Below, piece after piece: positions 29,143 to 46,487 of a DNA stretch of 64,000 nucleotides. The notes beneath the pieces were generated by a model. It ran no database searches and had not been told where the DNA came from. It saw only the letters and a list, made by a program, of their open reading frames with translations. The DNA lies in NCBI GenBank assembly GCA_019058445.1, contig JAHPZA010000006.1:832001-896000 (forward strand), read 5' to 3'. The DNA is from Promethearchaeota archaeon (lineage in GTDB: Archaea; Asgardarchaeota; Lokiarchaeia; Sigyniarchaeales; SOKP01). Position numbers and translations under genes: made by a program. The stretch's first letter is position 1. Every line of letters begins with the position of its first letter.

Positions 29143-29937
29143 TTGCAATTATTGGTATTATTTATGAGTTCCCTCGAAGATAAAATTGAAAAATTAAGCC
29201 AACTCATTATTGATTCTAAAAATATTGTAATTTTAACGGGAGCGGGAATGAGTACTGAATCTGGTATTCCAGACTTTAGAAGCCCGGATACTGGCCTATG
29301 GAACAAAGTAGATCCTGAAAAATATGCTACGATACACTCTTACGTCGCAAATCCCGGAAGGAATTTGAAAATGATGCTTGATTTGGGAACGAAGATTTTT
29401 AGGGCAAAACCAAATAAAGGCCATAAAGCTATAACTAAACTCCAAAAAATGGGAAAATTAATAGGAGTTCTTACTCAAAATGTTGATGGTTTGCATCAAA
29501 AGGCTCGTACTCAGAATGTTGTTGAGTTACATGGAACAGTGAATGAAGCTAAATGTATGAGATGTAAGCGTGTTTTTCCTATAACAGAGATGATAAATCA
29601 AGTAATGAAAGGAGCTATGAATCCTTCCTGTGGGATATGTTTTGGATTATTAAAACCAAACGCTATATTTTTTGGAGAACCTTTAGAATCTGAGAAACTT
29701 ATGAAAGCAGATGAAATGATTGCGAAATGTGATCTTTTGATCGTACTAGGAAGTTCCTTATTAGTCTATCCAGTTGCGTTTTATCCTCGCAAAGCGTTAT
29801 CCTTAGGAGCTAAATTAGCTATCATAAATATCCAAGAGACTGATTTAGATGATGATGCAGAAGTCGTAATACACAAAAAAATTGGGGACACATTGCCAAA
29901 AATAATTGAGTTAGTCGAAAAGAGAATTAATGCATGA
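29143..29937 (+). CDS. cobB: NAD-dependent protein deacylase (sirtuin)
   Basis: GAGMSTESGIPDFRS, TQNVDGLH, ELHG, CMRC/CGIC, GSSLLVYP; likely start MSSLED at 29164. Confidence 0.93.
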   Translation: MQLLVLFMSSLEDKIEKLSQLIIDSKNIVILTGAGMSTESGIPDFRSPDTGLWNKVDPEKYATIHSYVANPGRNLKMMLDLGTKIFRAKPNKGHKAITKLQKMGKLIGVLTQNVDGLHQKARTQNVVELHGTVNEAKCMRCKRVFPITEMINQVMKGAMNPSCGICFGLLKPNAIFFGEPLESEKLMKADEMIAKCDLLIVLGSSLLVYPVAFYPRKALSLGAKLAIINIQETDLDDDAEVVIHKKIGDTLPKIIELVEKRINA

Positions 29938-30029
29938 TTTAATTCCTTAGAGGACCTTAATATTGAAAAAAAAAATTTAATTTTATTGAGAGTTAAAAAA
30001 TTTTTTTAATTTTGATTATTATTCTCCAG

Positions 30030-31769
30030 TTATTTTCGTAGTACTTTCTTATCAACCTTGCCTACAGCAGTAAGAGGAATCTCTTCCATGATATGAACTT
30101 TTTTGGGAACCTCGTAAGGAGAACACTTCTCTTTGGCGTAATTTACGATATCTTCTTGTAATTTTTCTTCGTTTCCATCATATTCGAATTCGGGATCAAG
30201 TTGAATGTATGCGTTTACAATTTCAGAACCCGGACGGTCGGGATTAGGTTCTCCAATAAGAGCAATCATCCCTATTGCTGGATGTTCGGCTAAAACGTCC
30301 TCGACTTTACTAGAGAATACTTTAAAACCACCAACAATGATCATATCTTTTGTACGATCCACGATTTTTAAGTATCCATCTTCGCCTATGAGTGCTACAT
30401 CTCCCGTGTGCATATATCCATCCGCATCAATAGCTTTTTTGGTTTCTTCAGGTTTGTTGTAATATCCTTGCATGACTAATGGCCCCTTTACACAGATTTC
30501 TCCTGGTTCTCCTATAGGTACCACCTCTCCTGTGTCTGGATCAATTATTTTTAATTCTACGTTCTGAATAGGCATTCCAATCGTACCTAATTTCTTTTCT
30601 CCTAAGGAAGGATTCATTGTTGAGACCGGAGATGTCTCCGTCATCCCATATAACTCTAATAGCTTGCCTTCCCCTATTATACTCTCTAATTCTACTTGAG
30701 ATTCTTTAGGAAACGGAGACGCGGCTGAGATACACGTTCCTAAGTCGGAATGATCCAAATCTTTAAACTTAGGGTTTTTGATTAGCATTTGATATAAGGA
30801 AGGAACGTTAACTAAATTGGTTGGATGGTATTTCTTCATCTCTTTTACGATATGGTTTGTATCTCTCGGGTTTGGAATTTATACTAGAGAGACGCATGTT
30901 CTCTCAATTAATATTTGCGTCCACCCGAAGTATACGGCACTTTCGGCGACCGTTAATCCGGCTATGTGAAACATAGGGAACCCAGAGCATAAAACACCTT
31001 TTCCAAATTCCCATTGAAGCCACTCTGAAATGCTTAAAATATTAGACGCGACATTTCTATGAGTTAACATAGCTCCTTTTGGCGGACCCGTCGTCCCTCC
31101 AGTATATTGAATCCAACCTATATCGTCTGGAGTTAATTTAACGTCTGGTGGATCAGAAGAGAATTCTCCTTTTAATACATCCTTGTGGAAATCTAGTACA
31201 GTTTTTCCCTCTAAAGGTGTGACTTTTCCCTTTGGTATTTTACCTAAAGCTTTACCAAGCACTTGAATTACTTTTGGCAAGAACGACCCGACACTTGTGG
31301 TAATAATAAGTTTGGTTGAACCTAATTTTGAAGCAATTTTTGTAATGTGCCCCGCAAAAATTGCATCTAATGTCACCAACGCTACTTGTTTTCCCCCTGA
31401 ACCTAGATCGTTTAACTGATATTCGATCTGTAGGGCAGACAGAAGGGGCGAGACACCTGAAATTATGCATCCCGCACGTAGAGCGCCAATTAATGAAACT
31501 ATATACTCAATAGTATTTGGTAAATTGATACCAACGACATCTCCCTTTTTAAAGCCATTTGCGACGAGCATATTTGCAAATTTATTGGCCATTTCGTCTA
31601 ATTCTTTGAATGTTATTTCAACGCCTAAATACGCTAACGCGATTTTATCTGGATAATTCTGAAACGCTTTCTTAATCATGTCAACGTAGGTCGTTTCGAA
31701 TTCTTTAGGATCTAAGTCCTTAACGTGCGGATCCCAATTTTTCTTCCAAAATTTATCACTATACGACAT
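30030..31769 (-). CDS. fadD: Long-chain fatty acid-CoA ligase 1; two exons (31769-30909 and 30878-30030), 569 aa after splicing
   Basis: Exon 1 has YTGGTTGPPKG and PMFHIAG; exon 2 has YGMTET, GEICVKGP, TGD, DRTKDMI, GKVDKK; removing 30879-30908 gives continuous GWTQILIPNPRD. Confidence 0.88.
30879..30908 (-). other. Putative 30-nt BHB-type mRNA intron
   Basis: mRNA: AA[AUAU](UA^A)UUGAGAGA-acaugcg-UCUCUCUA[GUAU](AA^A)UU; 4-bp central helix, two 3-nt bulges; excision restores frame; ends in in-frame UAA. Confidence 0.8.
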
Positions 31770-32104
31770 TTTCGCTAGTAACCTTTTTTTTGTTTTAAAA
31801 TTTTTACATTATTTTCTAATTTTTTAAATAAAGCAATTGTTACTAGTTAATATTGATAAAATCAGTTATAAAGTTTTAATTTTAGAGTCTTCAATTTAGA
31901 TTTGATCAATTTTTCTTTTTTTGTAAATATTGGTTGCTTAAAAAATCAAACAAATCAATTTCTAGCATTATATATGTTAGATTATCATTTGAGTTTGAGT
32001 AATTAAAAAATAGAGTTATAAATATCTTTTAGAGTGTATTAATTTATATAATCTAATTCTTAAGTTAATATTAAGATTAAAAATTTTCTTAGGTTAAACT
32101 AACC

Positions 32105-32671
32105 GTGGTTGAATATTATTGTCATTATTGCAATAAGAATGCAAATGCAAATAAAAAGAACTCGCCAATATGCAAAATTTGCGGGTTTTATATGTCATCG
32201 GGGGCTAAGTTAGATGAGGAAATTTTGAGAATCCAACAAGAGAGGATGGGATATTGTAAAAAGTGCGGGAAAGAGGTGTATAGTGTTCCAATAAAAGTAA
32301 TTAAGGATGTAGTACGACATCGGTTTAATCAAGAAATTCATATTGTCGAGGCTGATCGTAAAAATGTGAAAAGAATGAAGCTTACCGATAGCAAATTCTT
32401 ATACGTAACAATTGTAATGATTCCTGTGTTTATCGTGGTATCAATGATTTTGCTGTGGTTAGGGTTGTTGCTAATCGGAGCGTTTACAGTGGCGTTAATT
32501 TTGGATTATCACAACAAAAGCAAGTTAAAAACAGATTTAGTAGCTATACGAGATAATAAGATTAAGAATTTGACCGAAGAGAAGCAAAAAGCGTTAAATG
32601 AGCTTTCGAAAGCTGAGCAAGATTATAAAAATTTATGTAGTGTGTGCGATGGGGGGGTAAAACCTCGTTAG
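32105..32671 (+). CDS. Zn-ribbon membrane protein
   Basis: CHYC, CKIC, CKKC, CSVC plus a two-TM hairpin. Confidence 0.7.
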   Translation: MVEYYCHYCNKNANANKKNSPICKICGFYMSSGAKLDEEILRIQQERMGYCKKCGKEVYSVPIKVIKDVVRHRFNQEIHIVEADRKNVKRMKLTDSKFLYVTIVMIPVFIVVSMILLWLGLLLIGAFTVALILDYHNKSKLKTDLVAIRDNKIKNLTEEKQKALNELSKAEQDYKNLCSVCDGGVKPR

Positions 32672-32923
32672 GCATTCTTATTTTTCTTTCTAACTTTTTT
32701 TATATTAGGTATGATTTATGAATTTGCGATCTAGTGGTTCACTAAATTTAGCTAAAATAAGGATAAAAATAATTGAAAGATAGTAAAATAAGCAGACCTG
32801 AAAAAAGTTAAAGAAACAAGCAAAAAAATAGTAGGATAATTTCACAAAAAAAAGCGAATAATAAATTAAAATTATAAAATTTTTTTTTAAAAATTTACAG
32901 TCTATTTCTTTAATTAACCATAT

Positions 32924-34063
32924 TCAAGAATTATTAATTTTTACATTCCTTTCTCTTAAAATCTTTATTGAACTATTAAAAGCATTAAAATTTTCTAAAT
33001 TTATCCAAAGTCTTTTTAATGAATAAAAATAGGTAAGCGAATCAGGGAGTTTTCTGAAATTATTAAAACTTATATCTAATTCTTCAAGCGAATTAAGATC
33101 TGATATTGAAGCTGGTAAGTTTAGTAAATTGTTTGATCTTAGACCAAGCTTTTTAATTGACACAAGATTTCCCATAGATTCTGGCAATTCTGTCAAATTG
33201 TTAAAATTCAAGATCAAAGTATGAAGTGTTTTGATATTTCCTATGGAACTAGGAAGATATATGAGATTATTCCTATTTAAAAATAACTCTTTTAACTGAC
33301 CAAAATCACCTATAGTATCTGGAAGAGTCTCTAACTGATTCCATCCGAGATTTAAAGATTCTAGTGAATCTAATTCTATAACAATCTCGGGAAATACTTT
33401 AAATTGATTAGAAAATAAATCTAAAGATCTTAATGAACACAGATTTAAAAAAGTATCTGGTATGACACTTAATTGATTCCTTCCTAGTAAAAGCTCTTTA
33501 AGAGAAGTAAGCGAATCTAATCTATCAATTTTTGCCAAATTATCAATATATCTATTTCGCAAATCTAATCTATTATTTAATACAATTCCATAAATTTTCC
33601 CTTTGAATAATACATAATCTAATCCAATTTCGTCCAGTATTGGTTTTAGCTCTCTTGTAGTAAAATTATTATATATTGGATCTTGGAGTAAATAACTTAC
33701 ATCATCAAGAGAATTATTTCTAATTTTGACTATAATCTCATTTTTAAATGTCTTTCTTGCAATCGTATCTCCTTTATTGGAAAGCTCTTCTAATATAGGA
33801 AATGCTAACTCTGATTGTAATAAATTGATATTATACTTGTTATCGACCCATTTTTTAAGTCTCTGATAAAAATATCTAAAAATTTCAACATTTGTGAGAC
33901 TTTCGATTGAAAATATATCAGAATCTATTAATCTAACTAAATCTTCTATAAAAAGTAAACCTTTAATGAATAAATTTATATTATTGCCTACCAACTTAAG
34001 AGTAATTAAATCATTAACTTTTTTACTTATAATACCATTAGACATAATTGAGTCTGATTTCAA
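32924..34063 (-). CDS. Leucine-rich repeat protein with Lokiarchaeia-type N-terminal domain
   Basis: About eight 23-aa LxxLxLxxNxLxxLP repeats; N-domain shared with 38496-39785. Confidence 0.9.
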   Translation of the reverse strand: MKSDSIMSNGIISKKVNDLITLKLVGNNINLFIKGLLFIEDLVRLIDSDIFSIESLTNVEIFRYFYQRLKKWVDNKYNINLLQSELAFPILEELSNKGDTIARKTFKNEIIVKIRNNSLDDVSYLLQDPIYNNFTTRELKPILDEIGLDYVLFKGKIYGIVLNNRLDLRNRYIDNLAKIDRLDSLTSLKELLLGRNQLSVIPDTFLNLCSLRSLDLFSNQFKVFPEIVIELDSLESLNLGWNQLETLPDTIGDFGQLKELFLNRNNLIYLPSSIGNIKTLHTLILNFNNLTELPESMGNLVSIKKLGLRSNNLLNLPASISDLNSLEELDISFNNFRKLPDSLTYFYSLKRLWINLENFNAFNSSIKILRERNVKINNS

Positions 34064-34129
34064 TAATTACAAATTTATTTTAAGACAATAAAATCAATAT
34101 TAATATTTAACTATTTAGCCCATTTTAGG

Positions 34130-37100
34130 TTATAATAACTCATCATTATAAAAGAAATAATAATCATATTCATGATGCCCGAGATAATGATTTTCTAAGA
34201 AATCACGGATTTTTGTTATAGATCTAGTTCTGAACCTTGACCTTAGAACACCTCTTAAATACCCAATCGCCTTGTCTATGACTTTTGGACCATCCCTGTC
34301 CAAACCAAGTTCTTGCGCTTTATCATCAATGAATCCGAGTTCATCAGCTATTTGAACTAAGCTAAGTGGTTTACCGTTATTATCTCTATAACGTATAAGG
34401 TTTTCTAGAAAAGGCTCTAAATAAATATGTCGCATTTTTGTCAATGGTCGATAGACAATAGCTTTAAGCTTATAAGAAATCCTTGTTATAGGATCTATCT
34501 CATATTTAAATGTATCAAAATATCTATTAAAAAGATGAGAAATATCGTCAGCCTCATAAAAGTCGCCTTTGTTCTCCCCTTCTTGCTTTCTAATACCTAA
34601 GGCCTTTAACCTATCAGCAATCTGATCTCTAGTTAACCCCTCCTTTACAAACTCTAATAAATAAGATCTAATAAAAAGATGTGAAGGATTATAGTTAACA
34701 ATATCAAGGCAAGTAGCGACACATTGCGCAACTATAGTTCTTTTTCCAAGTAATGAATCACCTCTCCCTAGATCATCAAATCTAAAGAAATGATTAGAAA
34801 TTTCTCTATCTGTCTTTCCTTGAGCACGTAGGGATTCTAAAATGGGTTTTATGTATATTTTCATTTGATCTTCATAAGACTTTTCAAACCACTGATAAAC
34901 TCTATTTTGAAGAGTTGTATATGATACTCCTATAATGGCGGCAGCATGTGTTAATGGCACCCCTCGCTTCATTAAAGAAATAACAAGATCTAAATCAATA
35001 TTTTTAAAATTCTCTGAAGGACTATCGATTAAATCCCCCACAATTTTATTATATTCTAAGTTGATATTTAAGTCATAACCTTTTTGATTTATCTTTCTAT
35101 TATAATAAATTGTCCAAAACTCTTCTGATTGCGTACCTTTTAGCGAACCTTCTTGTACATCAAGCAGCTTCATTACAAATACATCATTTGGATTTTTCCC
35201 GGAAGCTATAACCTCCCTCACATCATCATAAAATTTACCATTTCTCCCATGACGAGCTTTAGACAGATATTTAGCCCATCTTTGAGGTGGCGCTTCCTTA
35301 GTCTGACCTATTCGAACAAGCCCAGTTTCTTTATTAATGATAATATAGATATAAACTGGAGTCTTGCCTTTCTTTAAAATTGCATCAAAGATAGCCTTTA
35401 TCTGAGCTTCAGAATTTTTATTCCAAACACTATTCTTTAGGTTAATATTTTTAAATCGATTAGCATACTCGGACTTAATATTTTTAATAAACCATTTATA
35501 GAACTTTTGCGGGGACAGTTTAGATAATTTATCACCTCTTTTTTTTATTATCTCATCCCAAGTTTTATAATCATTTGCATCGATTTTGGAGTTCATCTTT
35601 ATATTAGAGCCGGAATCACCCATCGGACCAACATCAAGTGAAAATTTTATACCCGTCCTTTTAATAGCCTCAATAAGACCATACCTCGCAACAAGATAGT
35701 CCCATATTGAATCCGCTATTTTTAAAGGCAATAAAGGTTTTACAGAATCAGGGATTGCATACGAGTCATCTTTATAATTAAACCAGCGCAGCCTACTCCA
35801 TTTACTTGATTGCTCATCGTGCGCTTCATCCAGCTCGGGATAAGCAGCTAACATATTGGCTGTCATTAAGGTCAGCGCAGAAGCCTCATCTCCCGAAAAT
35901 TCTTCAATAACTTGCTGCACTCGGAATCGACCGATAAGCGCACCAAACGCTTTTTTTACAGGGACTTTATTAGCCCAATACGCAGAAACGGCTCCGGTAG
36001 AGATGGTACCTAAAGACGTAAATGCTGCAATCCCCGCCCCTAACACAGGAACCGCTAACACAGTAATGATTGTGGCTGCCGCTTTGGCAATAGTTCCTTT
36101 TGATGATGATTTGGCATCCTCTCTGGTCTGCTCGTCCTGCTCGGCAGTCTCTTTCATGGTATTACTACCGGTAGCGTCAATCTGTTGTTGGGCGTGCCCA
36201 TCTTGCTTAACATTCTGGGACCCTCCAAAAATACCGAATTTCGTCTCCCGACCTGTGGATACCAGAGTGGTGGCAGCCACTACCATATATTCATCGCCTC
36301 CCCATTGGCGAACAAGCCCGGCGGTCGCATCTTCAATATAGGGGTCGATAAAGACTTCTTCAAACGGCTCTGAAGCCACACTCCATAAAGTTAAGCCTTT
36401 CAGCCCTGCCGCACCGCCGATACCCGCGGTCAAGAGGGTGCTTACCACTGTAATGACGGTGGTATATGCGATTTCATCCAGTTTAGCTTGCGTCTCGGTG
36501 GCAATTTGGAATTGATAATAATATTCTAAAATGGCAGCCTGTACTGCTTGCATAGTGGCAATTTGCTCCATTTCTTCGCTGGTGAAGTTTCCCTTATCAT
36601 TAATGGAACGATATTTTTCGATATGAATTTCAAAAATCATATATGCAGTGATCAAGTGACCATATCGCTCCCAATAATCTTCATCCCAGGATTGTTCAAT
36701 CGCTTCCAATCGTCGATCTACTTTTTCGCAAAACTCTTGATATCTATCCGGGCTTAAGGTGAGCTCTCCAGAAGATGGATCAAATGTATAATCATCACTG
36801 TCCAGCGTTGCCACGAAAACTTTCTTAAAATTATCATTCTCATCATCATCATTGAACGATGACACCAAATACACGTCAATATCCTTAATTCCTTCTTGCA
36901 AAGTATCTTTGGGAACGATCTTCAAATCTTCTCCATCGCTTTTCTCCCAGATTTTATAAATCTTATCGTAAGTATAACTGCCTCCTATGGCTGAAATCTC
37001 ACTATACTCATCGCTAGATACAATGATCGGATAATCTTCATAAAACTCAGGAAGTGGTGAAGTGGGCTCTTCATTGGCAAACAACATAACCGGATAATAA

Positions 37101-38482
37101 TCATGCATGTAAGGAATAACCTTGTTTAAATCCCTATCTTTCTTGGCATCGGTAGTCTCGGCAACTGCCTGTTCTAAAAAGGCAATCGAGTTGTGCGAGT
37201 ATAAAATGGGATCTTGATATTCATAAAAGATATCATCTTCTTGCATATATTGGATTACTCGGGGATCATCAAAATCAGAATAGGCAATATAGCTTCTTGA
37301 TTGCATGCTATAATCCAAGTTCATTTTCTTGTAATTGGTAATAAATGGATCCCACCAATTTTCAGTGTCCCAATCAATCGAATCTAATCCAAGCATATTG
37401 GTCTTCCCTTCGCCCAAGTCTCCGTTCGCAGGAGCTAATACTATTTGCCCCTCATAGGTGTATTTCTCAGTCTCAAATACTACCGGCGCATAAATTCCGT
37501 TGGTAGTGCAAGTAAATGCGGTGGTCATCGTCTCGCCAAACCACTCATCAGACCACCATTTTCTGGACAAGGTTTTCTTTCCCCGATAATGCTCCGAATC
37601 ATGATACGTATAGGCTTTAATGTAATTTTCTTGCTCAGCAACATCCATCCACCCTTTCATGGTAGTGAGCATGGCATATACAGCCGCACCTCCTATAGGA
37701 GAGACATAAGTAGATATAACAGCCGAAATTAAAAGCGATTCAGTTTGCCACATAATATCGGCTTGGATTTGCTCGCAGGACAGGGACTCTAAGAAAGTAT
37801 TAAACGTAATCTCTTCCGCTTCTCTAATAAGTTGAGAGGCTGTACCCTCCCATTGTATCTTCCAGAGGTCATAAAGCGCGTCCGAAAAGGTAGGCTCCAG
37901 ATAATACCCCCCGAAGTCATCTTCGTGGTGGAACCCAATCAGTTCATTGTAAATGAGGTTTTTTACATTGAACACCCCTGCCTCTGTAGAATATCTATTT
38001 CTGCGAACTTGCCTTTGCACGATATGCTTACCGTGAGGGTTAAAATAGGCATCGCTATAATAATCGAATCCAACACCAATCATATCTCCAGAATCATCGG
38101 CAATAAATATTGTCTCGAAAAAGCCGTCACTATCGCCATCGTAATAGTAATAAGCCCCATCCGTCTTAGAAGGGTATTTACCCATATTATTATCGTAGTA
38201 TACCCCATCTTTAGGTGCTACCTTAATTGTATTTAATACAATATTCTCCTCATTTAGTCCGGACCAACTGCTATAACTGCTTGTTAAATCAAAAGTCTTA
38301 TTGGCGGTTAAAATATTTAATGTGGAAAATTCTCCATCAGCAAATTCCATAACCGTTTCATATAAGGCAGGCACATTATCATTATCATGAACCAGCGAAA
38401 GAAGCGGCTCTTTATTGGATATCTCAACCTCTACATCATTATAGCTATCATAATCATCTAAGTCATTGATAATAGTCTGCAC
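34130..38482 (-). CDS. Giant (probably 5'-truncated) polymorphic-toxin-like protein with C-terminal GIY-YIG nuclease and HTH-like domains
   Basis: Acidic N-part with YDGDSDGFFET, Gly/Ala-rich hydrophobic helices, then VYIYIIINKETGLVRIGQT...R and HTH-like segments. Confidence 0.7.
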   Translation of the reverse strand: MQTIINDLDDYDSYNDVEVEISNKEPLLSLVHDNDNVPALYETVMEFADGEFSTLNILTANKTFDLTSSYSSWSGLNEENIVLNTIKVAPKDGVYYDNNMGKYPSKTDGAYYYYDGDSDGFFETIFIADDSGDMIGVGFDYYSDAYFNPHGKHIVQRQVRRNRYSTEAGVFNVKNLIYNELIGFHHEDDFGGYYLEPTFSDALYDLWKIQWEGTASQLIREAEEITFNTFLESLSCEQIQADIMWQTESLLISAVISTYVSPIGGAAVYAMLTTMKGWMDVAEQENYIKAYTYHDSEHYRGKKTLSRKWWSDEWFGETMTTAFTCTTNGIYAPVVFETEKYTYEGQIVLAPANGDLGEGKTNMLGLDSIDWDTENWWDPFITNYKKMNLDYSMQSRSYIAYSDFDDPRVIQYMQEDDIFYEYQDPILYSHNSIAFLEQAVAETTDAKKDRDLNKVIPYMHDYYPVMLFANEEPTSPLPEFYEDYPIIVSSDEYSEISAIGGSYTYDKIYKIWEKSDGEDLKIVPKDTLQEGIKDIDVYLVSSFNDDDENDNFKKVFVATLDSDDYTFDPSSGELTLSPDRYQEFCEKVDRRLEAIEQSWDEDYWERYGHLITAYMIFEIHIEKYRSINDKGNFTSEEMEQIATMQAVQAAILEYYYQFQIATETQAKLDEIAYTTVITVVSTLLTAGIGGAAGLKGLTLWSVASEPFEEVFIDPYIEDATAGLVRQWGGDEYMVVAATTLVSTGRETKFGIFGGSQNVKQDGHAQQQIDATGSNTMKETAEQDEQTREDAKSSSKGTIAKAAATIITVLAVPVLGAGIAAFTSLGTISTGAVSAYWANKVPVKKAFGALIGRFRVQQVIEEFSGDEASALTLMTANMLAAYPELDEAHDEQSSKWSRLRWFNYKDDSYAIPDSVKPLLPLKIADSIWDYLVARYGLIEAIKRTGIKFSLDVGPMGDSGSNIKMNSKIDANDYKTWDEIIKKRGDKLSKLSPQKFYKWFIKNIKSEYANRFKNINLKNSVWNKNSEAQIKAIFDAILKKGKTPVYIYIIINKETGLVRIGQTKEAPPQRWAKYLSKARHGRNGKFYDDVREVIASGKNPNDVFVMKLLDVQEGSLKGTQSEEFWTIYYNRKINQKGYDLNINLEYNKIVGDLIDSPSENFKNIDLDLVISLMKRGVPLTHAAAIIGVSYTTLQNRVYQWFEKSYEDQMKIYIKPILESLRAQGKTDREISNHFFRFDDLGRGDSLLGKRTIVAQCVATCLDIVNYNPSHLFIRSYLLEFVKEGLTRDQIADRLKALGIRKQEGENKGDFYEADDISHLFNRYFDTFKYEIDPITRISYKLKAIVYRPLTKMRHIYLEPFLENLIRYRDNNGKPLSLVQIADELGFIDDKAQELGLDRDGPKVIDKAIGYLRGVLRSRFRTRSITKIRDFLENHYLGHHEYDYYFFYNDELL

Positions 38483-38495
38483 GTAATATTCTGGA

Positions 38496-39785
38496 TTATA
38501 CAGATCTGCAATTTCGTTTGGGAATATCCCATACTCGTATTGTTTTATGTCCTACTGATGCTATTATATTCTGTCCATTTGGGCTAAAATAGATTCGAGT
38601 AAAATCTGTTTTAGTTGACAATGTTTTGTAGATGGTTTTGGATGCAATATCCATGAGTACTACATCTCCTGTTTTTGTGGCAAATACAACATTTTTTCCT
38701 TCAGGAGATACATCAAACGGCACTAAATCATGAAAGGAAGTAAGTTTATCGAATAATTTTCCTGATTTTAAATCCCAAATAAAAAGCGCGCTATACGCAA
38801 TATCACCATCCACTAAACTTGCCAATAAGTAAGTGTTATCCCCCGAGAATTTAAGGCATCTCGCAGATGCGTGAGGAGTTTCACATTGAAAGATCACTTT
38901 TTTTTGGTTTGTATCCCATACGGCTATCCCTCCATTGTAAAATCCTAATCCTAAAAGAGTCCCATCTTGCGAAATTCCGATCTCATCTACTTTATCTTTA
39001 AAAGTATGTAAGTAATGCGCATACCCTCCAGAAAGTGTGTAATAAAATAATTCGTTATTTTCTGTGCCATAATATATCTTCTTTCCATCAGAGCTCACTT
39101 CAAAACCCTCTTCTGAAGCATTTTCTAAGAAGAACTCATCAAATGGTATATATATTTTAGTTTCTAAAGCATCATGCTGCATTTTTTTCAGAATTGTTTT
39201 TGCATGAGTGCTCTTTAGAATATTTTTTATAGCATTTTTAATGAAATTGGGATAATCAATGTGGGAAAAATCCATCTCTTCCAATACACTTTCCATCTCT
39301 TCTGCCGAAAGATATTCTAAATAATCGCATGCTAATAAATAATTCATCACGTTTTCATACCCTACGGCAAACCGCTTGGCAATCTCCTCTTTAAACACTT
39401 TTTTCGCGATGGGATCTCCGACGCTCTGAAGCTTTTTTAGCAAGCTAAACGCTAAATTCCTATGTAATAAATTAGTATTGTAGTTGTGCTCCGCCCACGC
39501 TTGGAGATTCGAACAATGCCCCCAAAATTCCACTCCTGGCTGAATCCCATGGTCGCTCGTTTTTCCGGTCTCAAGTGTACCGTCCAAATTTTCTGAAGCC
39601 TGGTCTATAGAGCTATATTCGTTGACTTTTACAAGATCCTCTGTGGGAATATTCATGAGGAGATATTTGCAATGCCCATAATAGCGCCCTTTAATATATA
39701 TATTGGTCTTTTTATTCTCCAGTTTTAAGGTAATATACTCATTAACCACAAATGGAGAGATATTTTCGGATTCTTTCACACTCAC
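38496..39785 (-). CDS. WD40-repeat protein with Lokiarchaeia-type N-terminal domain (possibly 3'-truncated)
   Basis: EFWGHCSNLQAW...LLHRNLAF...GDPIAKKVFKEEI N-domain; repeats SQDG..L....IAVWD, FSGD...FIWD, SPEG, FSPNG...IRVWD. Confidence 0.8.
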   Translation of the reverse strand: MSVKESENISPFVVNEYITLKLENKKTNIYIKGRYYGHCKYLLMNIPTEDLVKVNEYSSIDQASENLDGTLETGKTSDHGIQPGVEFWGHCSNLQAWAEHNYNTNLLHRNLAFSLLKKLQSVGDPIAKKVFKEEIAKRFAVGYENVMNYLLACDYLEYLSAEEMESVLEEMDFSHIDYPNFIKNAIKNILKSTHAKTILKKMQHDALETKIYIPFDEFFLENASEEGFEVSSDGKKIYYGTENNELFYYTLSGGYAHYLHTFKDKVDEIGISQDGTLLGLGFYNGGIAVWDTNQKKVIFQCETPHASARCLKFSGDNTYLLASLVDGDIAYSALFIWDLKSGKLFDKLTSFHDLVPFDVSPEGKNVVFATKTGDVVLMDIASKTIYKTLSTKTDFTRIYFSPNGQNIIASVGHKTIRVWDIPKRNCRSV

Positions 39786-39981
39786 GGTACATTGCCTTTT
39801 GATACTGAGAAATTAGTCTTGAAAGTTAATATCTACAAAAATATTTAAAGGAAAATTTTTCTGAAAATACTTAATGGATAGGGCATAATGATACTTTTTC
39901 ATTTAAATCATAACAGTCCTCATAGTAAATATTAATAGTATTTTTCATTACTTTATACAGATTTGAGAAAAAAGACAAAAT

Positions 39982-42303
39982 ATGAAGATTTTAGCATGGA
40001 GTGATTGGAGAATCCAATCTTTAGAGACATTAATGGGCATTATACAAAAGGAAAATCCCGACCTACTACTCTATGCGGGAGATGATTTAGATCGATTAAT
40101 TGGTGCAAGCAGTAAGATTTATTTTAAAACGTATAATCATTTTATAGAGGTAGATATAAATAAATTAGATGATCTGTACCAAAATGACTCATTTGCGAAA
40201 AATCCTAAAATTAAGGAAATTATCCTAGAATTTCAAAATAATAATTTAAATCTCATTGAGCAGCTTGATATTCCTTTCATATACGTAAATGGAAATGATG
40301 ATTATATCTTAAAGATTAATGGAGAGAATTATCTTAAAATTTCTAAAAGCTTCAGAATAAATAAGGAATGGTATGATATATGCGAAAATATTGAGGGAAG
40401 AGTAGATTTTATCCCACACGACGAGTATAAGGAGTTAAGTGAAAATATCCCCTATATAAAAAAGGTTTTAAGAGACCAAAAGGAATATAAAATCTTATCA
40501 AGTTCTCCAGAAATTAAAAAATATCTTCACAATGAGGAGGTTTATGAGGTATATAGTATTTATGGGCAAGATGATATTTTTTATGCGATTGAAAAAGGGC
40601 AGAACCACATTGACCCTTTTTTGTGGTATACAAAAGATAATGGAATATATGTGAAAATATCCCCCACCTATGGAAAAACCGAGTTCAATACTCGAAATGA
40701 ATCAATATCCATATTTGGAAGCGGTTGCTCTATTGGAAGGGAAAGTCAAATTATTTTTCCTCCCAACGAATATGCTGATATTTACCTCTCTCATTTACCA
40801 CCATTAGGGAAATTAGATTTATCAAGTAGATTTGGAATCAACCATATTGGCTCAAAAGCACTTTTAGAGGCAATACATACCTATCACCCTAAATTTGTGA
40901 TATGCGGACACTCTCATATGTGGGGCGGAGAAGCAGAACACGTCAATGGCACGGTAGTTGTAAATGTAAGTTCTCATGACAGTCCACGATTTACCACCAC
41001 AGCAAATTACGTTACCATTACTACTAATGATTGGTCTTACCAAATTAAAAAAGAAAGTATGCTCCCAGAAAATACCCTATCTCTCCTGAAAATAAGGGGG
41101 TTTAATACTTTAAGAAAAAAATTGCGCGAAAAAGGAGATATTTACATTCAAAATGAAATATATCATAAATATCATAAAAACTTAGAAGGATTAGTGGGAG
41201 TTAATAGGGAGAGGGGCTTTTATATAGATGTAGGATCTTTAGAGAGAAAGGAGCCTGCAGAACAAATAAAAATACAGAAATTCTTAAAGGAAGAACTCAG
41301 CCTTGATATATCAATATATCGGCAAGAGTATGAGAAAGCTAGTTCATTATACGCCAAATTGTATTTTGCTCGCATTTTTGATGATGCGTTTGAAGTCTTA
41401 AATGAGGTGGAGAATTTTGGAATTTCTACTTTACGAATGAAAGAAAGGATATTAGCCTTGAGTAAAAGAACCCCAAAGGTACAAAAAAGTATCACATTTA
41501 ATCCTTATGATAATTATTTTGTTGATGTTGAAACCGGAAATTTTCAAGCAGATGAACCGGGTAGATTATGGTTGATAGGGATCGCAAGTGGACGCCAGAA
41601 ACAGATTAAACAGTTTGTTTATCCTCAAGAGTTTCCAAAGTTCCTTAAGTATCTGAAAGATAATGCTATTGACACCTTAGTCTCGTGGTCACGATATGAT
41701 CATCAAGTATTGAGACCAATCCTAAAGTCCCACAAAATAAAAATGAAATATTATGATGCCTTACAAAGGACTGCCAATTGTTTAAGTTGGCATACCTATT
41801 CATTACATGATCTTTATAACGCCCTTTTCCCAGATAAGAAGACTCCTCCAGAGCTCATTTCTGGAGAAAGAGCTGGATTGTATGCTGATCATTTATTGAT
41901 TGATAACTCTTCGTGTCCTCACTGCTCAAATAAGAAAGATCAAATCATCGAGGAGATCAAAAAACGAAACAAATTAGATGTATTACAAATGATAGAGATT
42001 TGTGAGCATTTATATAAAGAAGAGATTTATGAGTGTCCCAACTGTGGTTTTACCACCAAATATAAAAAAGGTTTGATACGACATATAAAAAATAAGGTGT
42101 GTAAAAAGGAGGAGCGTGAAGTAAAGAAGAAAAGTCCCCCTCTTCTTTCCATTAATAAAAAGGACATAGAAAATCTGGCACATTTTAATGAATACGGAGT
42201 GTTTGTGTGCAATTGTGGAAAAACATATTTATCGGGCTCGCATAGGTATATCTTAGATCATATCCAATATTGCCCCCAATTTATCTTTAAAGTAAAGAAG
42301 TAG
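39982..42303 (+). CDS. Calcineurin-like metallophosphoesterase fused to RNase H-like (YprB-type) domain and zinc fingers
   Basis: MKILAWSD, YAGDD, VNGNDD, SHLPP, CGHSH; later FVDVETG...LWLIG...YD...D; CPHC, CPNC..H, CNCG..H..C. Confidence 0.75.
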   Translation: MKILAWSDWRIQSLETLMGIIQKENPDLLLYAGDDLDRLIGASSKIYFKTYNHFIEVDINKLDDLYQNDSFAKNPKIKEIILEFQNNNLNLIEQLDIPFIYVNGNDDYILKINGENYLKISKSFRINKEWYDICENIEGRVDFIPHDEYKELSENIPYIKKVLRDQKEYKILSSSPEIKKYLHNEEVYEVYSIYGQDDIFYAIEKGQNHIDPFLWYTKDNGIYVKISPTYGKTEFNTRNESISIFGSGCSIGRESQIIFPPNEYADIYLSHLPPLGKLDLSSRFGINHIGSKALLEAIHTYHPKFVICGHSHMWGGEAEHVNGTVVVNVSSHDSPRFTTTANYVTITTNDWSYQIKKESMLPENTLSLLKIRGFNTLRKKLREKGDIYIQNEIYHKYHKNLEGLVGVNRERGFYIDVGSLERKEPAEQIKIQKFLKEELSLDISIYRQEYEKASSLYAKLYFARIFDDAFEVLNEVENFGISTLRMKERILALSKRTPKVQKSITFNPYDNYFVDVETGNFQADEPGRLWLIGIASGRQKQIKQFVYPQEFPKFLKYLKDNAIDTLVSWSRYDHQVLRPILKSHKIKMKYYDALQRTANCLSWHTYSLHDLYNALFPDKKTPPELISGERAGLYADHLLIDNSSCPHCSNKKDQIIEEIKKRNKLDVLQMIEICEHLYKEEIYECPNCGFTTKYKKGLIRHIKNKVCKKEEREVKKKSPPLLSINKKDIENLAHFNEYGVFVCNCGKTYLSGSHRYILDHIQYCPQFIFKVKK

Positions 42304-42410
42304 TTTTACAGATATCTATCTAAATTTTTATAGACTAGGATAATTTTCGATTTTTTCTTTATAAATAGGCATCAGTAATTTACTCCAAAGAAGAATTTAA
42401 GGTAATGTAA

Positions 42411-42782
42411 ATGGAAAGACAATTTACCCTCGTAACCTATACATTAGTACTTCTGCTCATGATAGGATTAGTAGTTAATTTAGCATTACTTATTGTAATA
42501 TTATTAGTCGATACCTTTTTAGTTTCTGATGCTATTACCGTGTCCGCTATAATCCTAATTACATTATCAATGGTTGGGATTTTCTCTAAGCAAAAATGGG
42601 GTGCCACACTTGCTATTTCTAAATCTATATTTGATATTATACTAAGACTGTGGTTTTTCTCCCTTGGCTATACCGACACATTAATTTTTATACTGCTTAC
42701 CCTCGTCCTTGCAATAAAAGAATATCAGCATATAGATACCTATTGGCAATCGGTTACATCTAAATCTATATCCTATCCCTAA
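42411..42782 (+). CDS. Small four-TM membrane protein
   Basis: Four hydrophobic segments in 123 aa. Confidence 0.65.
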   Translation: MERQFTLVTYTLVLLLMIGLVVNLALLIVILLVDTFLVSDAITVSAIILITLSMVGIFSKQKWGATLAISKSIFDIILRLWFFSLGYTDTLIFILLTLVLAIKEYQHIDTYWQSVTSKSISYP

Positions 42783-42857
42783 GTCCCTTTTTTTTCATAC
42801 TAATCTGAAAATTCATTAATCTACACATATTTAAATTCGAATGTTTCATAATGTATC

Positions 42858-43007
42858 ATGGCAACAAAAGCATCATAACTCCGGTATCACCCTGGATTTT
42901 TGTCTTTTGGTTAGTGTATGGAAATACACTCTGATTTTGCCCTCCTCCCCCTTGTATTGTTTTGACCTCTGTGTGAGGTCCCGATACCAGGAGTTTTTTG
43001 TTGCCAT
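42858..43007 (+). ncRNA. Candidate 150-nt structured non-coding RNA (or MITE-like element)
   Basis: Closing stems of 12+6+6 bp, two internal hairpins (one with a GGAA tetraloop), TTTAAA box ~25 nt upstream, T-tracts downstream. Confidence 0.6.
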
Positions 43008-43131
43008 TTTTTCAGTATTTTTTTTACTACTACTATCTTTTCTGTTAAACTATGATAAAAATCCAAATAACTTTTTATAATAGGAATACTATGGAAAAGT
43101 TTAAGGAATACTAGATGAGGAAAATAGAGCA

Positions 43132-43623
43132 ATGTCCGACCAAAAATCACCTCTTAAATCTATCATTCGCAGCTACATACTTGAGATCGGTGGGCTTTTA
43201 AAAGAAGAATTAAAGGAACCTCGATTTGAATTTGGATTTCGGTTCTTATATCCCAATGAAAGAGGCAGACTTCTGCTTATTGCCCAACCAAAAAATAAAT
43301 CTGTGATTGAAATTTCACAAGGTACCCCCCTCTCTACAGAGCACCGACAAGGATTTATGGCTTTACCTGACAGAGATAAAAAAAATTTCGTGAAGAATTT
43401 ACAAAAAATCTTATTTCGTTTGGAAGTAGATTATTCCTATGAGTTTTCTAAGCATTATACCATCGTGCTTATAGATAAACTATTTTTAGAGAATGATGCC
43501 ATTTCTATTAATGAGTTATTCCGTTCCGTGCGTAAAATATAGTGTAGCACCATGAACATTATATTTTTCATCCAGGAGTTCTTTTCTGAAGAATTCGATC
43601 CTACCACTTTTACTGTAGGATGA
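43132..43623 (+). pseudogene. DUF2299-like protein with in-frame amber codon at 43540-43542
   Basis: Frame continues after TAG as CSTMNIIFFIQEFFSEEFDPTTFTVG to TGA at 43621-43623; family call tentative. Confidence 0.5.
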
Positions 43624-43754
43624 AAAAAAGAATTAAGGAAAGAGAAAGAAATTCATAACCTAAGTTTTCATTATATTTCTATTTTATCATAAATCCAAAT
43701 TGCACACGAGACTCCATATTAATATGCTAAACATTAAAAGGAGATGATCCCCAT

Positions 43755-44021
43755 ATGAGCATAATCCTCAAGCTGAAAATTAAGAGAGCAAAACTCACCG
43801 AGAAATACTTTATATTCGGTTTTAACGATGGATCATTCATAGGATTTCATAATGAGAGTTTGAAGTTAATCGCATACAAACACAATGGAGAGAAATGGGA
43901 ACCAATCCGAAAGGCAGATACCACATTTGATGCTCATATTAACGCCATCATATCATTCCTCGTTGAGAGAGAAGCCCTCAAAAAATTAACCATATATCAA
44001 ACCCTCCTAAGCAGGTGTTAA
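43755..44021 (+). CDS. Small hypothetical protein
   Basis: 88-aa ORF preceded by AGGAGATG SD-like motif. Confidence 0.6.
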   Translation: MSIILKLKIKRAKLTEKYFIFGFNDGSFIGFHNESLKLIAYKHNGEKWEPIRKADTTFDAHINAIISFLVEREALKKLTIYQTLLSRC

Positions 44022-44025
44022 GACC

Positions 44026-44208
44026 ATGTGCGAACTCTTAGAAATGGCAATTCTAAAGGAAGTGGCATTAAACGTATTTGCTCCGTAACTTGAGGCACTC
44101 CAGCAAATGCCCGTGCTTGAAGTCAATGAAATCGAAGAGATTCTCAGGTACGCAGATTATACTGATTACAAGACATTTCAAGATCTCCGTACCTTATTTC
44201 ACTTCTAA
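44026..44208 (+). pseudogene. Small ORF interrupted by in-frame TAA (44086-44088)
   Basis: AGGTG SD; MCELLEMAILKEVALNVFAP*LEALQQMPVLEVNEIEEILRYADYTDYKTFQDLRTLFHF*. Confidence 0.5.
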
Positions 44209-44340
44209 ATTTTTATTTCTATTTTTTTTATTTTCTTTTATTCATTAATATCTTTAATTAAAAAAATAAAAATTAGAATATTAATTAAAAAAAAATGGAA
44301 ATTATATTGATATTTTACGTTATACTATGGAATACTGCTT

Positions 44341-46094
44341 TTATTTTCGTAAAAGTTTCTTGTCAACCTTTCCAACAGCAGTCAATGGGAGCTCTTCTAT
44401 GATTTTAATTTTCTTCGGGACTTCATATGGAGCACATTGCTCCTTTGCAAATACAATGATACTTTCTTTTAACGCCTCTTCATTTCCGTCATATTCATAG
44501 TTAGGGTCTAGCTGAATATAGGCATTTACAATTTCAGAGCCCGGGCGATCGGGATTCGGTTCACCTATTAGTGCCATACTTCCAATCGCAGGATGTTTGG
44601 TTAATGTGTCTTCTACCTTAGATGAGAAAACTTTGAAACCCCCTACAATTATCATATCCTTGGTACGGTCTACAATACGTATATATCCATCCTCATCCAT
44701 CATTCCCACATCACCGCTGTGCATATATCCATCCGCATCAATCGCTTTTTTGGTTTCTTCAGGTTTGTTGTAATAACCCTGCATGACTAATGGACCTTTT
44801 ACGCAAATCTCTCCAGCTTCTCCCAAGGGTACTGCTTTTCCAGTTTCTGGATCAACAATCTTTAAGTCAACATTCTGAATAGGCATTCCAACTGTACCTA
44901 ATTTTCTTTCTCCTTTCGAAGGATTCATTGTTGCAACGGGGGACAGTTCGGTCATTCCGTATAATTCCAATAATTTTCCCTTTCCTACTATACTTTCTAA
45001 TTGTATCTGAGATTCGATGGGGAAAGGAGATGCTGCAGAAATACAGACTTCTAAAGTTGAGTGATCCAACCTTTTGAATTTTTTGAAATTTATTAGAATC
45101 TGATATAGGGAAGGTACATTCACAAGTCCAGAAGGTTTGTACTGTTTAATTTGATTACATATGGACAAAGCGTTTCGTGGGTCCTGCATTAGACGAATCG
45201 TCTTAATTAATCAGGCACGAGACACTGGGTCCAACCCAGATAAATAAAACTCTCACAAACAGTTAAACCTGCAATATGGAAGAAAGGAAAACCTGATAAT
45301 GCTGTTCCCACTCCCCATTCCCAATTAAGCCATGACCGAATAGACATAATGTTAGAAATTGTATTTCTATGGCTTATCATTGCTCCTTTGGGAGGTCCTG
45401 TGGTGCCTCCAGTATATTGAATAAATGCAATATTGTCGGGAGAAATCTCTACATTCGGCGGATCAGTTGGATATTTTGCAAAAACGTCATCATGAATATC
45501 TAATACAGTTTTTCCCTCTAAAGGTGTGACTTCTCCCGAAGGAATTTCCTGAACAGCTTTAATTTTTTCCTGTTGTTCTTTTGGAAAGATCCCAATAACG
45601 CTGGTGGTTAAGACAAGTTTTAATTGAGGGCATTTCGAAGCGATTTTAACCAATCTTCCCGCAAAAATTGCATCTAAAGTTATCAATGCAACATTTTTTC
45701 CACCCTCTCCTAAGTCGTTTATTTGGTATTGCATTTGAATCTCCGACATGAGAGGAGAAACTCCTGAAAGGATACATCCTGCTCTCAATATACCTACGAG
45801 GGCAATAACATATTCTGGAATATTAGGTAAATTTACTGCTACAACATCCCCTTTTTTAAATCCATGGTCAATTAATGCATTTGCTAACGAATTTGCGTAT
45901 TTATCCAGCTGCCCATATGTAACTTCTAAACCTTGAAATGCTAAAGCAACTTTATCGGGAACTTCTTTAAATGTCCGTTCTATTCCTTTTACATATGTGG
46001 TGTCGAATTCCTTTGGATCGATATCGTGAACATCAGAATCCCAATTTTTTTTCCAAAAACGGCTAGCATAAATTTCTTCTGCCATATTTATCAC
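44341..46094 (-). CDS. fadD: Long-chain fatty acid-CoA ligase 2; two exons (46094-45210 and 45180-44341), ~574 aa after splicing
   Basis: Same motifs as ligase 1; removing 45181-45209 gives continuous GWTQCLVPDPRNA. Confidence 0.88.
45181..45209 (-). other. Putative 29-nt BHB-type mRNA intron
   Basis: mRNA: UCGUG[CCUG](AU^U)AAUUAAGACG-auu-CGUCUAAUG[CAGG](AC^C)CACGA; perfect 5-bp outer and 4-bp central helices; excision repairs both stop and frameshift. Confidence 0.85.
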
Positions 46095-46487
46095 TGATTT
46101 CTTTTTTTTTTGTAAATTTTATTATGTGTAACTATAATTGATCAATTCTTTTTATAAAAGTTTTATACATCCATTTTTTTCTATATTATTAATTATGCTT
46201 TATTTTAATATTGAAAATTAATAATAATTATTAAAAAAAATAAAAACAATTCTCAAAATAGAAAAAAAAGATTAATTAATTGTTGATTTAGGGCATTTTA
46301 GGTAACACAATTTCTCTTATTTATGCTATACACGATTAAATTTATCAAATCTTTTTAGATAAATTCTACCCAATTCTTTGGTAATTTTTTCAATAATAAT
46401 CCACTTCAAGTTTAAAAATTAACAGATATTACCACTACAAAAAGGAAAAAAAAATTTTTAATAAAAAAATAGAAATTTAGGTTTAGA

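Follow-up and report, generated by a model that had tools for sequence, protein, structure and literature searches.

The two genes for FadD-like acyl-CoA ligases present in the window, that is, the whole stretch of 64,000 nucleotides (nt) analysed here from the genome of a Promethearchaeota archaeon (G000:C6:832001-896000), are each interrupted by a short insert, of 30 nt in gene A and of 29 nt in its paralogue, gene B. We consider it very probable that both inserts are archaeal pre-mRNA introns of the bulge-helix-bulge (BHB) or tRNA type, gained separately at a favoured site and carried as constitutively spliced passengers. In the mechanism that we propose, the 3′ end of exon 1 would pair in the transcript with the 3′ end of the intron, forming a 4-bp helix with a bulge of 3 nt on each strand. 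The endonuclease EndA would cut after the second base of each bulge and the ligase RtcB would join the exons, and the outcome would be an intact mRNA for a FadD-like acyl-CoA ligase of 569 or 571 amino acids (aa). The introns would be carried along by their host genes rather than serve as a regulatory device.

Interrupted Genes and Joined Reading

Genes A and B each show up in the window as two open reading frames (ORFs), and gene callers and NCBI list them as two proteins or as "partial"; the product of exon 1 of gene B is on record as a called protein of 292 aa. The C-terminal halves of the two paralogues are 79% identical at the amino acid level and the N-terminal halves about 61%. In gene A the Pfam AMP-binding profile is covered from 3 to 234 by exon 1 and from 242 to 384, plus AMP-binding_C, by exon 2; the corresponding ranges in gene B are 2–238 and 248–384, again followed by AMP-binding_C. 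The N-terminal halves contain the GGTTGPPKG loop, and the C-terminal halves contain YGMTE, TGD, and the C-terminal GKVDKK. An unspliced message would thus encode a half with the loop and without YGMTE, the GD motif, and the catalytic Lys, as had been stated in an earlier note on this DNA (the original prediction). By domain order and motifs, both joined products would be FadD-like long-chain acyl-CoA synthetases of the ANL superfamily.

After deletion of the inserts, gene A reads ...GWTQIL|IPNPRDTNHIVKEMKKY... and gene B reads ...GWTQCLVPD|PRNALSICNQIKQY... The intron-less orthologues in G008 and G002, two genomes of the same genus, match this joined reading letter for letter (QILIPNPRD and CLVPDPRN). 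The ends of intron A are ambiguous over 5 positions, owing to an AATT repeat. In the alignment of the paralogues the two sites lie 3 codons (9 nt) apart, and there was no significant similarity between the inserts (385 of 2000 shuffles score as well). The original description of two unrelated inserts 9 nt apart, both with a stop codon, was confirmed throughout.

Intron A, with 27 of its 30 nt identical, was also found in L043 and L140, each from a different JGI sample, and in L044 (Logan); it is absent from the orthologues in G002, G008, and G003. Intron B is present in L138 (ENA), with 26 of 29 nt identical, and absent from G008, G002, and L139. Moreover, a more distant homologue recovered from two ENA samples (L045/L046), with 69% protein identity to B, has a 30-nt insert at the exact B position. 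Considering that the same inserts occur in independent assemblies (L043/L140, L044, L138, and L045/L046), they are not assembly errors. No further copy of intron A or intron B was detected anywhere in the genome, so that nothing points to transposition of a tRNA intron. The 100 nt on either side of each intron show no resemblance to it in direct or inverted orientation (p 0.2–0.9), and an origin by local duplication or transposition left no trace in the flank comparison or the genome search.

Bulge-Helix-Bulge Fold of the Inserts

The layout used to search for the motif consisted of an outer helix, a central helix of 4 bp, and on each strand a 3-nt bulge cut after its second base. Canonical cuts in this layout excise exactly 29 nt from B and 30 nt from A, and give the reading of the intron-less orthologues. 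Each gene has one frame-restoring register with four of four central pairs, at least two outer pairs, and an inner helix (Table 1). In B the fit was strict and the intron hairpin was present; the energy of the BHB conformer was −16.3 kcal/mol, against a minimum free energy (MFE) of −16.9 kcal/mol (0.6 apart). In A the inner helix has 7 pairs, and only one of the five frame-equivalent registers has four paired central positions. Once spliced, the exons of B give a stem of 5 bp and a loop of 7 nt, in which the cut falls between bases 6 and 7.

Random (position, length) pairs drawn in G000 passed the same structural filter at a rate of 7e-4, or about 3e-3 per gene. Taking into account the rate of 7e-4, the three independent fits obtained at frame-restoring registers are far beyond chance.

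RNA Contigs Spanning the Two Sites

The RNA sample consisted of Logan contigs from four metatranscriptome runs of one study, compared with the window over 30000-46100. Three runs gave contigs of 536–1223 nt that span the B site with exactly 29 nt missing at 45181. These three runs also gave contigs of 927–1231 nt across the A site, from which a total of 30 nt is missing. The insert was retained in no RNA contig bridging either site in the four runs.

These contigs are 90–94% identical to the window and belong to a relative that differs from it by 8-9% (91-92% identical). G008 and G002 are only 77–84% identical, and the variants of the RNA contigs match neither of them; therefore, those intron-less genomes are not their source. 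The source organism is closer to G000 than the intron-bearing L043/L140 (82-83%) and L138 (87%), so its ancestors most likely had both introns. For this comparison the assemblies with the introns were presumed to be DNA; that of L140 is a contig of 4 kb whose genes lie on both strands, and that of L138 is an ENA contig. Without splicing, the RNA contigs would need two further precise losses, and splicing is the more economical explanation.

Two further joints seen in RNA contigs were taken as assembly chimeras: one from 30879 to 31087, with only 21 letters on one side, and one from 45430 to 31524, which connects the paralogues. The stretch at 32.1–44.0 kb was without RNA-contig cover, and no conclusion was drawn from it.

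Splicing Machinery and Other Inserts in the Genome

The catalytic subunit of EndA is encoded in G000 by an ORF of 202 aa (C9:770313-770921) that matches PF01974 at 68 bits, and RtcB was matched at 574 bits. The EndA of Asgard archaea has been described as the broad-specificity (αβ)2 type with an L1 loop, which cuts relaxed motifs (PMC5829648). The motif, the cut sites, the pair-preserving changes described below, and the enzyme genes, which are among the features of EndA-spliced BHB introns, were all found. ARAGORN recognized only 23 tRNA genes in this genome, 19 of them with a predicted intron. This number fits the heavy interruption described for Asgard tRNA genes (bioRxiv 10.64898/2026.10.13.758758), and most tRNA genes of G000 are probably too interrupted for recognition.

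Similar inserts were found in other genes of the same genome. A gene of the ChlI/ChlD-type AAA family has a 30-nt insert that fits the BHB layout (G000:C9:269043-269072; MNPE|EGELRPQ), and so does an Oxidored_FMN/Pyr_redox_2 gene (30 nt; G000:C6:165873-165902, minus strand). Both breaks lie inside single Pfam domains, and the profile coordinates run on across them. In the gene for eIF2-gamma a frame-shifting insert of 29 nt (G000:C4 ~384840-384870, minus strand) lies inside the P-loop (GHVDHG | KTTLVQ); at the canonical register its 4-bp helix, AUGG/CCAU, is fully paired, but no outer helix was found.

An acetyl-CoA synthetase gene (acs; G000:C10:621539-622475, minus strand), a distant paralogue of A and B, has four inserts of about 32, 60, 30, and 30 nt, located after CTA(D), VPTYP, GEPI, and YWQ. 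None of them passes the strict BHB filter, and the 60-nt insert has three of the four pairs of a central helix. Counted back from the conserved (T/N)xP motif, the distance of this 60-nt insert is 2 codons to site B and 5 codons to site A. The original prediction had named introns scattered randomly along other paralogues and spliced constitutively as an observation that would speak against it, and with four inserts over about 480 nt the acs gene provides this in part. The 20 other AMP-ligase paralogues of G000 are all uninterrupted.

A strict scan of G000 for BHB motifs that join ORFs gave 2442 raw hits, mostly adjacent gene pairs. The scan recovered the introns of A, B, the ChlD-like gene, and the flavin oxidoreductase gene, and missed those of acs and eIF2-gamma, whose outer helices are weak. 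Since introns with weak outer helices are missed, it does not give a count of introns.

Gain and Loss of the Introns

In a protein tree of 111 homologues, A and B were located in different starred clades, both filled with intron-less genes from many genera, and the duplication that separated A and B is therefore far older than either intron. The phylogeny of paralogues with mapped introns, which had been suggested as a check, thus favours separate origins. The DNA tree for gene A has the form (win_A, (G002_A, L043)), and the intron-less G002_A is 91.7% identical to L043, which has the intron. From this topology and this contrast we deduced one gain and one precise loss. Intron A is older than the split of G000 from the G002/L043 pair and was precisely lost in G002.

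In the tree for gene B the intron is carried by win_B and L138, whereas L139, G008_B, and G002_B, which form a starred clade, are without it, a distribution that implies one gain and at most one loss. The intron of L045/L046 belongs to another subclade, where the sister L052 has no intron, and it is only marginally similar to intron B (37 of 2000 shuffles, p ~0.02). Among 79 metagenome loci and about 160 orthologues, the latter taken from 151 genomes of the order, no other interruption was detected.

The distribution bears on the suggestion that regulated or inefficient splicing gates the supply of active ligase, with unspliced mRNA giving an inactive N-terminal half. It is true that both paralogues of one genome have a stop-bearing intron in the same region, and that intron A (27 of 30 nt) is better conserved than the synonymous positions of the gene that carries it (82% nt identity), but the pairing needed for excision already explains this conservation. 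Close relatives have precisely lost either intron and keep the genes intact under the same selection, and about 260 other homologues are uninterrupted here. Considering also that the bridging RNA contigs are all intron-less and that inserts of this kind also interrupt the ChlD-like, flavin oxidoreductase, and eIF2-gamma genes, which are housekeeping and metabolic genes unrelated to the ligases, such a switch is very unlikely, and the proposed gating of fatty-acid activation is not upheld.

A Probable Favoured Site within the Ligase Gene

Introns occupy the same region in both A and B, and the distant homologue L045/L046 has one at exactly the position of B. At least two, perhaps three, independent introns within 10 nt of an otherwise uninterrupted gene of 1.7 kb make a favoured site a better reading than uniform insertion. 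The original prediction had proposed independent gains at a region whose codons naturally form a stem; the gains at a favoured site stand, and the natural stem fails at site B. In intron-less homologues the exon-exon helix has on average 0.07 pairs at the geometry of B, and 1.6 pairs, a weak value, at site A, and none of a pre-existing exon hairpin was apparent at site B among 104 contexts that have no intron. The helix accompanies the intron instead of preceding it, and it is built from synonymous codons.

The proximity of the two positions could also be due to a single intron, present before the duplication, that slid by 9 nt in one copy and then disappeared from almost every descendant. The group does demonstrably show frequent precise losses, and a BHB motif, being partly exonic, could in principle adopt a new register. 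Nevertheless, intron A changes slowly and yet has no sequence in common with B, and the two introns are each limited to a small clade at the tips of the tree, with starred branches and more than 100 intron-less genes between the two, so that dozens of losses would be needed. Sliding, which the original prediction had offered as its other option, is consequently very unlikely.

Covariation and Selection

The central helix is paired in all three B-site introns (win_B, L138, and L045). Its third pair is U-A, C-G, or G.U across the three, and an inner pair is A-U or U-A; the C-G case combines a synonymous change of a Pro codon in the exon (CCU to CCC) with a change from A to G in the intron. In the B-site introns 92.9% of the cells pair, against 14–50% for slid partners. 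Intron A and its copy in L043 present three differences, U.U to G.U, G-C to G.U, and one loop base, by which pairs are kept or added.

In translational bypassing, known from gene 60 of phage T4 and from the mitochondrial byps of Magnusiomyces, the insert stays in the mRNA and the ribosome hops between matched codons. The inserts described here resemble those of bypassing in that a short sequence with a stop and a hairpin lies between matched codons of an otherwise intact gene: in B a take-off GAU is followed by UAA and a hairpin, with a landing GAC 29 nt on, and in A the codon AUU recurs 30 nt downstream. The matched codons, however, follow from the sequence of helix and bulge, no stop comes after the take-off codon in A, and the features that define bypassing are not all found. 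Moreover, the contigs of the RNA libraries lack exactly the inserts, and bypassing leaves unexplained the 4-bp helix with its two 3-nt bulges, the compensatory changes, and the same architecture in other genes. We regard it as highly improbable.

The ratio of nonsynonymous to synonymous substitution rates (dN/dS) in gene A was 0.053 for exon 1, by comparison with the G002 orthologue, and 0.029 for exon 2; for exon 2 of gene B it was 0.038–0.040. The parts downstream of the stop or the frame shift gave 0.029–0.043 at synonymous divergence (dS) >1, and intron-less pairs gave 0.041–0.055. These values point to strong purifying selection on the downstream halves. Considering that intron A predates the split of L043, gene A has kept its insert through more than 17% nt divergence without a further lesion. 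The interpretation of the inserts as introns, and not as decay, is supported.

That the halves are translated separately and assemble into a split enzyme, or that the genes are pseudogenes or assembly errors, is equally improbable: gene callers do give two proteins per gene and the B insert has an ATG in frame with exon 2 (MQD|PRN...), but the interruption falls within the large N-terminal domain (~236–245 of 384 in the Pfam profile) and not at the domain hinge, the ATG is not conserved in L045, the first ATG of A would drop the conserved IPNPRD, dN/dS is 0.03–0.04 with no further lesion over dS >1, and independent assemblies agree on the inserts.

Observations Unfavourable to the Proposed Introns

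Some of the results weigh against the interpretation as spliced BHB introns. The BHB conformer of A has an energy of −12.0 kcal/mol, against an MFE of −20.7 kcal/mol, that is, 8.7 kcal/mol above it, and its outer helix consists of two A-U pairs only; for these two reasons we classified A as a relaxed motif. The covariation comes from three distinct sequences for B and two for A, and 27 of 500 shuffles reach the observed covariation score. The strict genome-wide scan gave no peak at 29–31 nt above the false positives due to adjacent genes. The β subunit of EndA, expected for Asgard archaea (PMC5829648), was not identified and was not sought. With respect to the RNA, the contigs come from a relative whose DNA was not seen, no joined read is from the organism of G000 itself, precise loss at the DNA level does happen in the group (G002_A), and contigs cannot reveal rare unspliced forms. 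Finally, the B-site introns of G000/L138 and of L045 may descend from a single old intron that was lost six or more times, or may equally well represent two gains.

Comparison with Known Systems

Our literature search found archaeal BHB introns in coding regions documented only for cbf5 of Crenarchaeota (PMC2738675), and found no paper on BHB introns in Asgard mRNAs. The pre-mRNA intron of cbf5 is removed by the tRNA-splicing endonuclease and has undergone lineage-specific loss (Watanabe 2002; Yoshinari 2006; Yokobori 2009, PMC2738675). As the closest known case, cbf5 shares with A and B a short BHB intron in a coding region and its loss in certain lineages. What is new by comparison is the Asgard phylum, the host genes, the presence of unrelated introns 9 nt apart in paralogues, and a resolved pattern of gain and loss, visible among species 82–92% identical and with the site occupied also in a distant homologue. 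On the other hand, splicing rests here on contigs of a relative and not, as for cbf5, on reverse transcription PCR of the organism.

The introns of archaeal tRNAs have the canonical hBHBh′ motif at position 37/38, and the relaxed HBh′ and hBH motifs are cut by enzymes of the (αβ)2 and ε2 types (PMC5829648). The inserts share with them the 4-bp helix between 3-nt bulges and the symmetric cuts, and the spliced B exons have the geometry of an anticodon arm. They differ from tRNA introns in that the substrate is an mRNA whose exonic strands are constrained by codons, and in that the loop has neither U33 nor purine 37. Introns spliced by EndA are in general released with 2′,3′-cyclic phosphate and 5′-OH termini, and they often become circular after excision.

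In eukaryotes, the mRNAs of HAC1 and XBP1 are spliced within the coding region at paired stem-loops by Ire1 together with RtcB or Trl1, and this is a true regulatory switch. The likeness is that a coding mRNA loses a short intron without the help of a spliceosome and that a tRNA ligase then joins it. The nuclease and the recognition motif are others, and nothing in the present data points to regulation.

The locus adds support from RNA libraries for both introns and a compensatory change with one side in an exon codon and the other in the intron. It also adds a micro-history, with one gain and a precise loss for A, a patchy distribution for B, and the use of the same position in a distant homologue. 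With this, the turnover of introns in ordinary metabolic genes of Asgard archaea becomes measurable, which bears on how introns spread without a spliceosome. As a more speculative extension, which we put forward tentatively and hold to be possible rather than probable, BHB introns may go through a fast cycle of gain and precise loss in Asgard genes, in which certain mRNA sites are colonised repeatedly (here independently in A, B, and the distant homologue) and the exons adapt by synonymous changes that form the exon-exon and exon-intron helices. If this were the case, it would provide a natural time series of the birth, fixation, and loss of introns in the closest prokaryotic relatives of eukaryotes, and the implied mechanism would be a reversal of splicing by EndA and RtcB followed by reverse transcription, or else a targeted insertion.

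Other Candidate Interruptions and the Locus

Several apparent interruptions in homologues were examined and rejected. That of L054 is the end of a chimeric contig, that of L083 a frame shift of 1 nt in a homopolymer, those of G088 and G145 a TAA upstream of the start codon, and that of G041 a contig end. L131/P0001, an ENA contig at 2.3x, has a frame-shifting deletion of 144 nt that spans the intron; it was considered an artefact or a dead copy and was left unused. The intron-less P0028 (JGI, 91%) was not used either. A homologue from G033 (L029, G033:C1:2193752-2197615) that ends after ILIVDP, one codon from site B, was uninformative. G033 is a fragmentary assembly in a single record, 63% complete, and its best C-terminal piece is partial and 630 kb away. 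L029 runs on into unrelated GC-rich sequence, and a break at the intron-polymorphic site is conceivable. P0062, a JGI protein that is an intron-less relative of L045, is without two internal segments, including the GGTTGPPKG loop, which may be due to misassembly or mark another processed form.

The coordinates of the introns, exons, and motifs are collected in Table 1.

Table 1: Positions in the window of the two introns, their host exons, the BHB motifs, and the stretch between the paralogues.
Feature	Position	Strand	Description
Intron A	30879-30908	minus	30 nt, in frame, ends in TAA, inner hairpin GAGAGA/UCUCUC
Intron B	45181-45209	minus	29 nt, TAA directly after GAT, frame shift, inner hairpin AGACG/CGUCU
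BHB of A	30876-30916	minus	Outer pairs AA 30915-30916 with UU 30876-30877, assigned by hand
BHB of A, central helix			AUAU 30911-30914 with GUAU 30881-30884; bulges UAA 30908-30910 and AAA 30878-30880
BHB of B	45170-45225	minus	Exon-exon helix of 9 pairs, 45216-45225 with 45170-45179, interrupted by one mismatched position
BHB of B, central helix			CCUG 45212-45215 with CAGG 45183-45186; bulges AUU 45209-45211 and ACC 45180-45182
Gene A (FadD-like acyl-CoA ligase), exon 1	30909-31769	minus	ORF, 287 codons, ends ...GWTQIL
Gene A, exon 2	30030-30878	minus	IPNPRD... to stop; holds YGMTE, TGD, GKVDKK
Gene B (paralogue), exon 1	45210-46085 (ATG start) or 45210-46094 (GTG start)	minus	Ends ...GWTQCLVPD
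Gene B, exon 2	44341-45180	minus	PRNALS... to stop
Stretch between the paralogues, outside the introns	31770-44340		12.6 kb; GC up to 0.44 vs ~0.31

The host genome comprises 4.6 Mb in 10 contigs. In G008 the orthologues of A and B are in tandem, only 265 nt apart, and they are also adjacent in G002 and G022. By comparison with the tandem arrangement of G008, the stretch that separates A and B in the window resembles an inserted island; it contains a leucine-rich repeat protein, a protein of 1450 aa, a WD40 protein, and a protein of 773 aa. After gene A, a Sir2-family gene is located on the opposite strand (29143-29937 of the window), as is also the case in the JGI relative L140 (L140:1964-2737). 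Taking into account this neighbour in both, the synteny downstream of A is conserved, and on the upstream side it is disrupted by the island.

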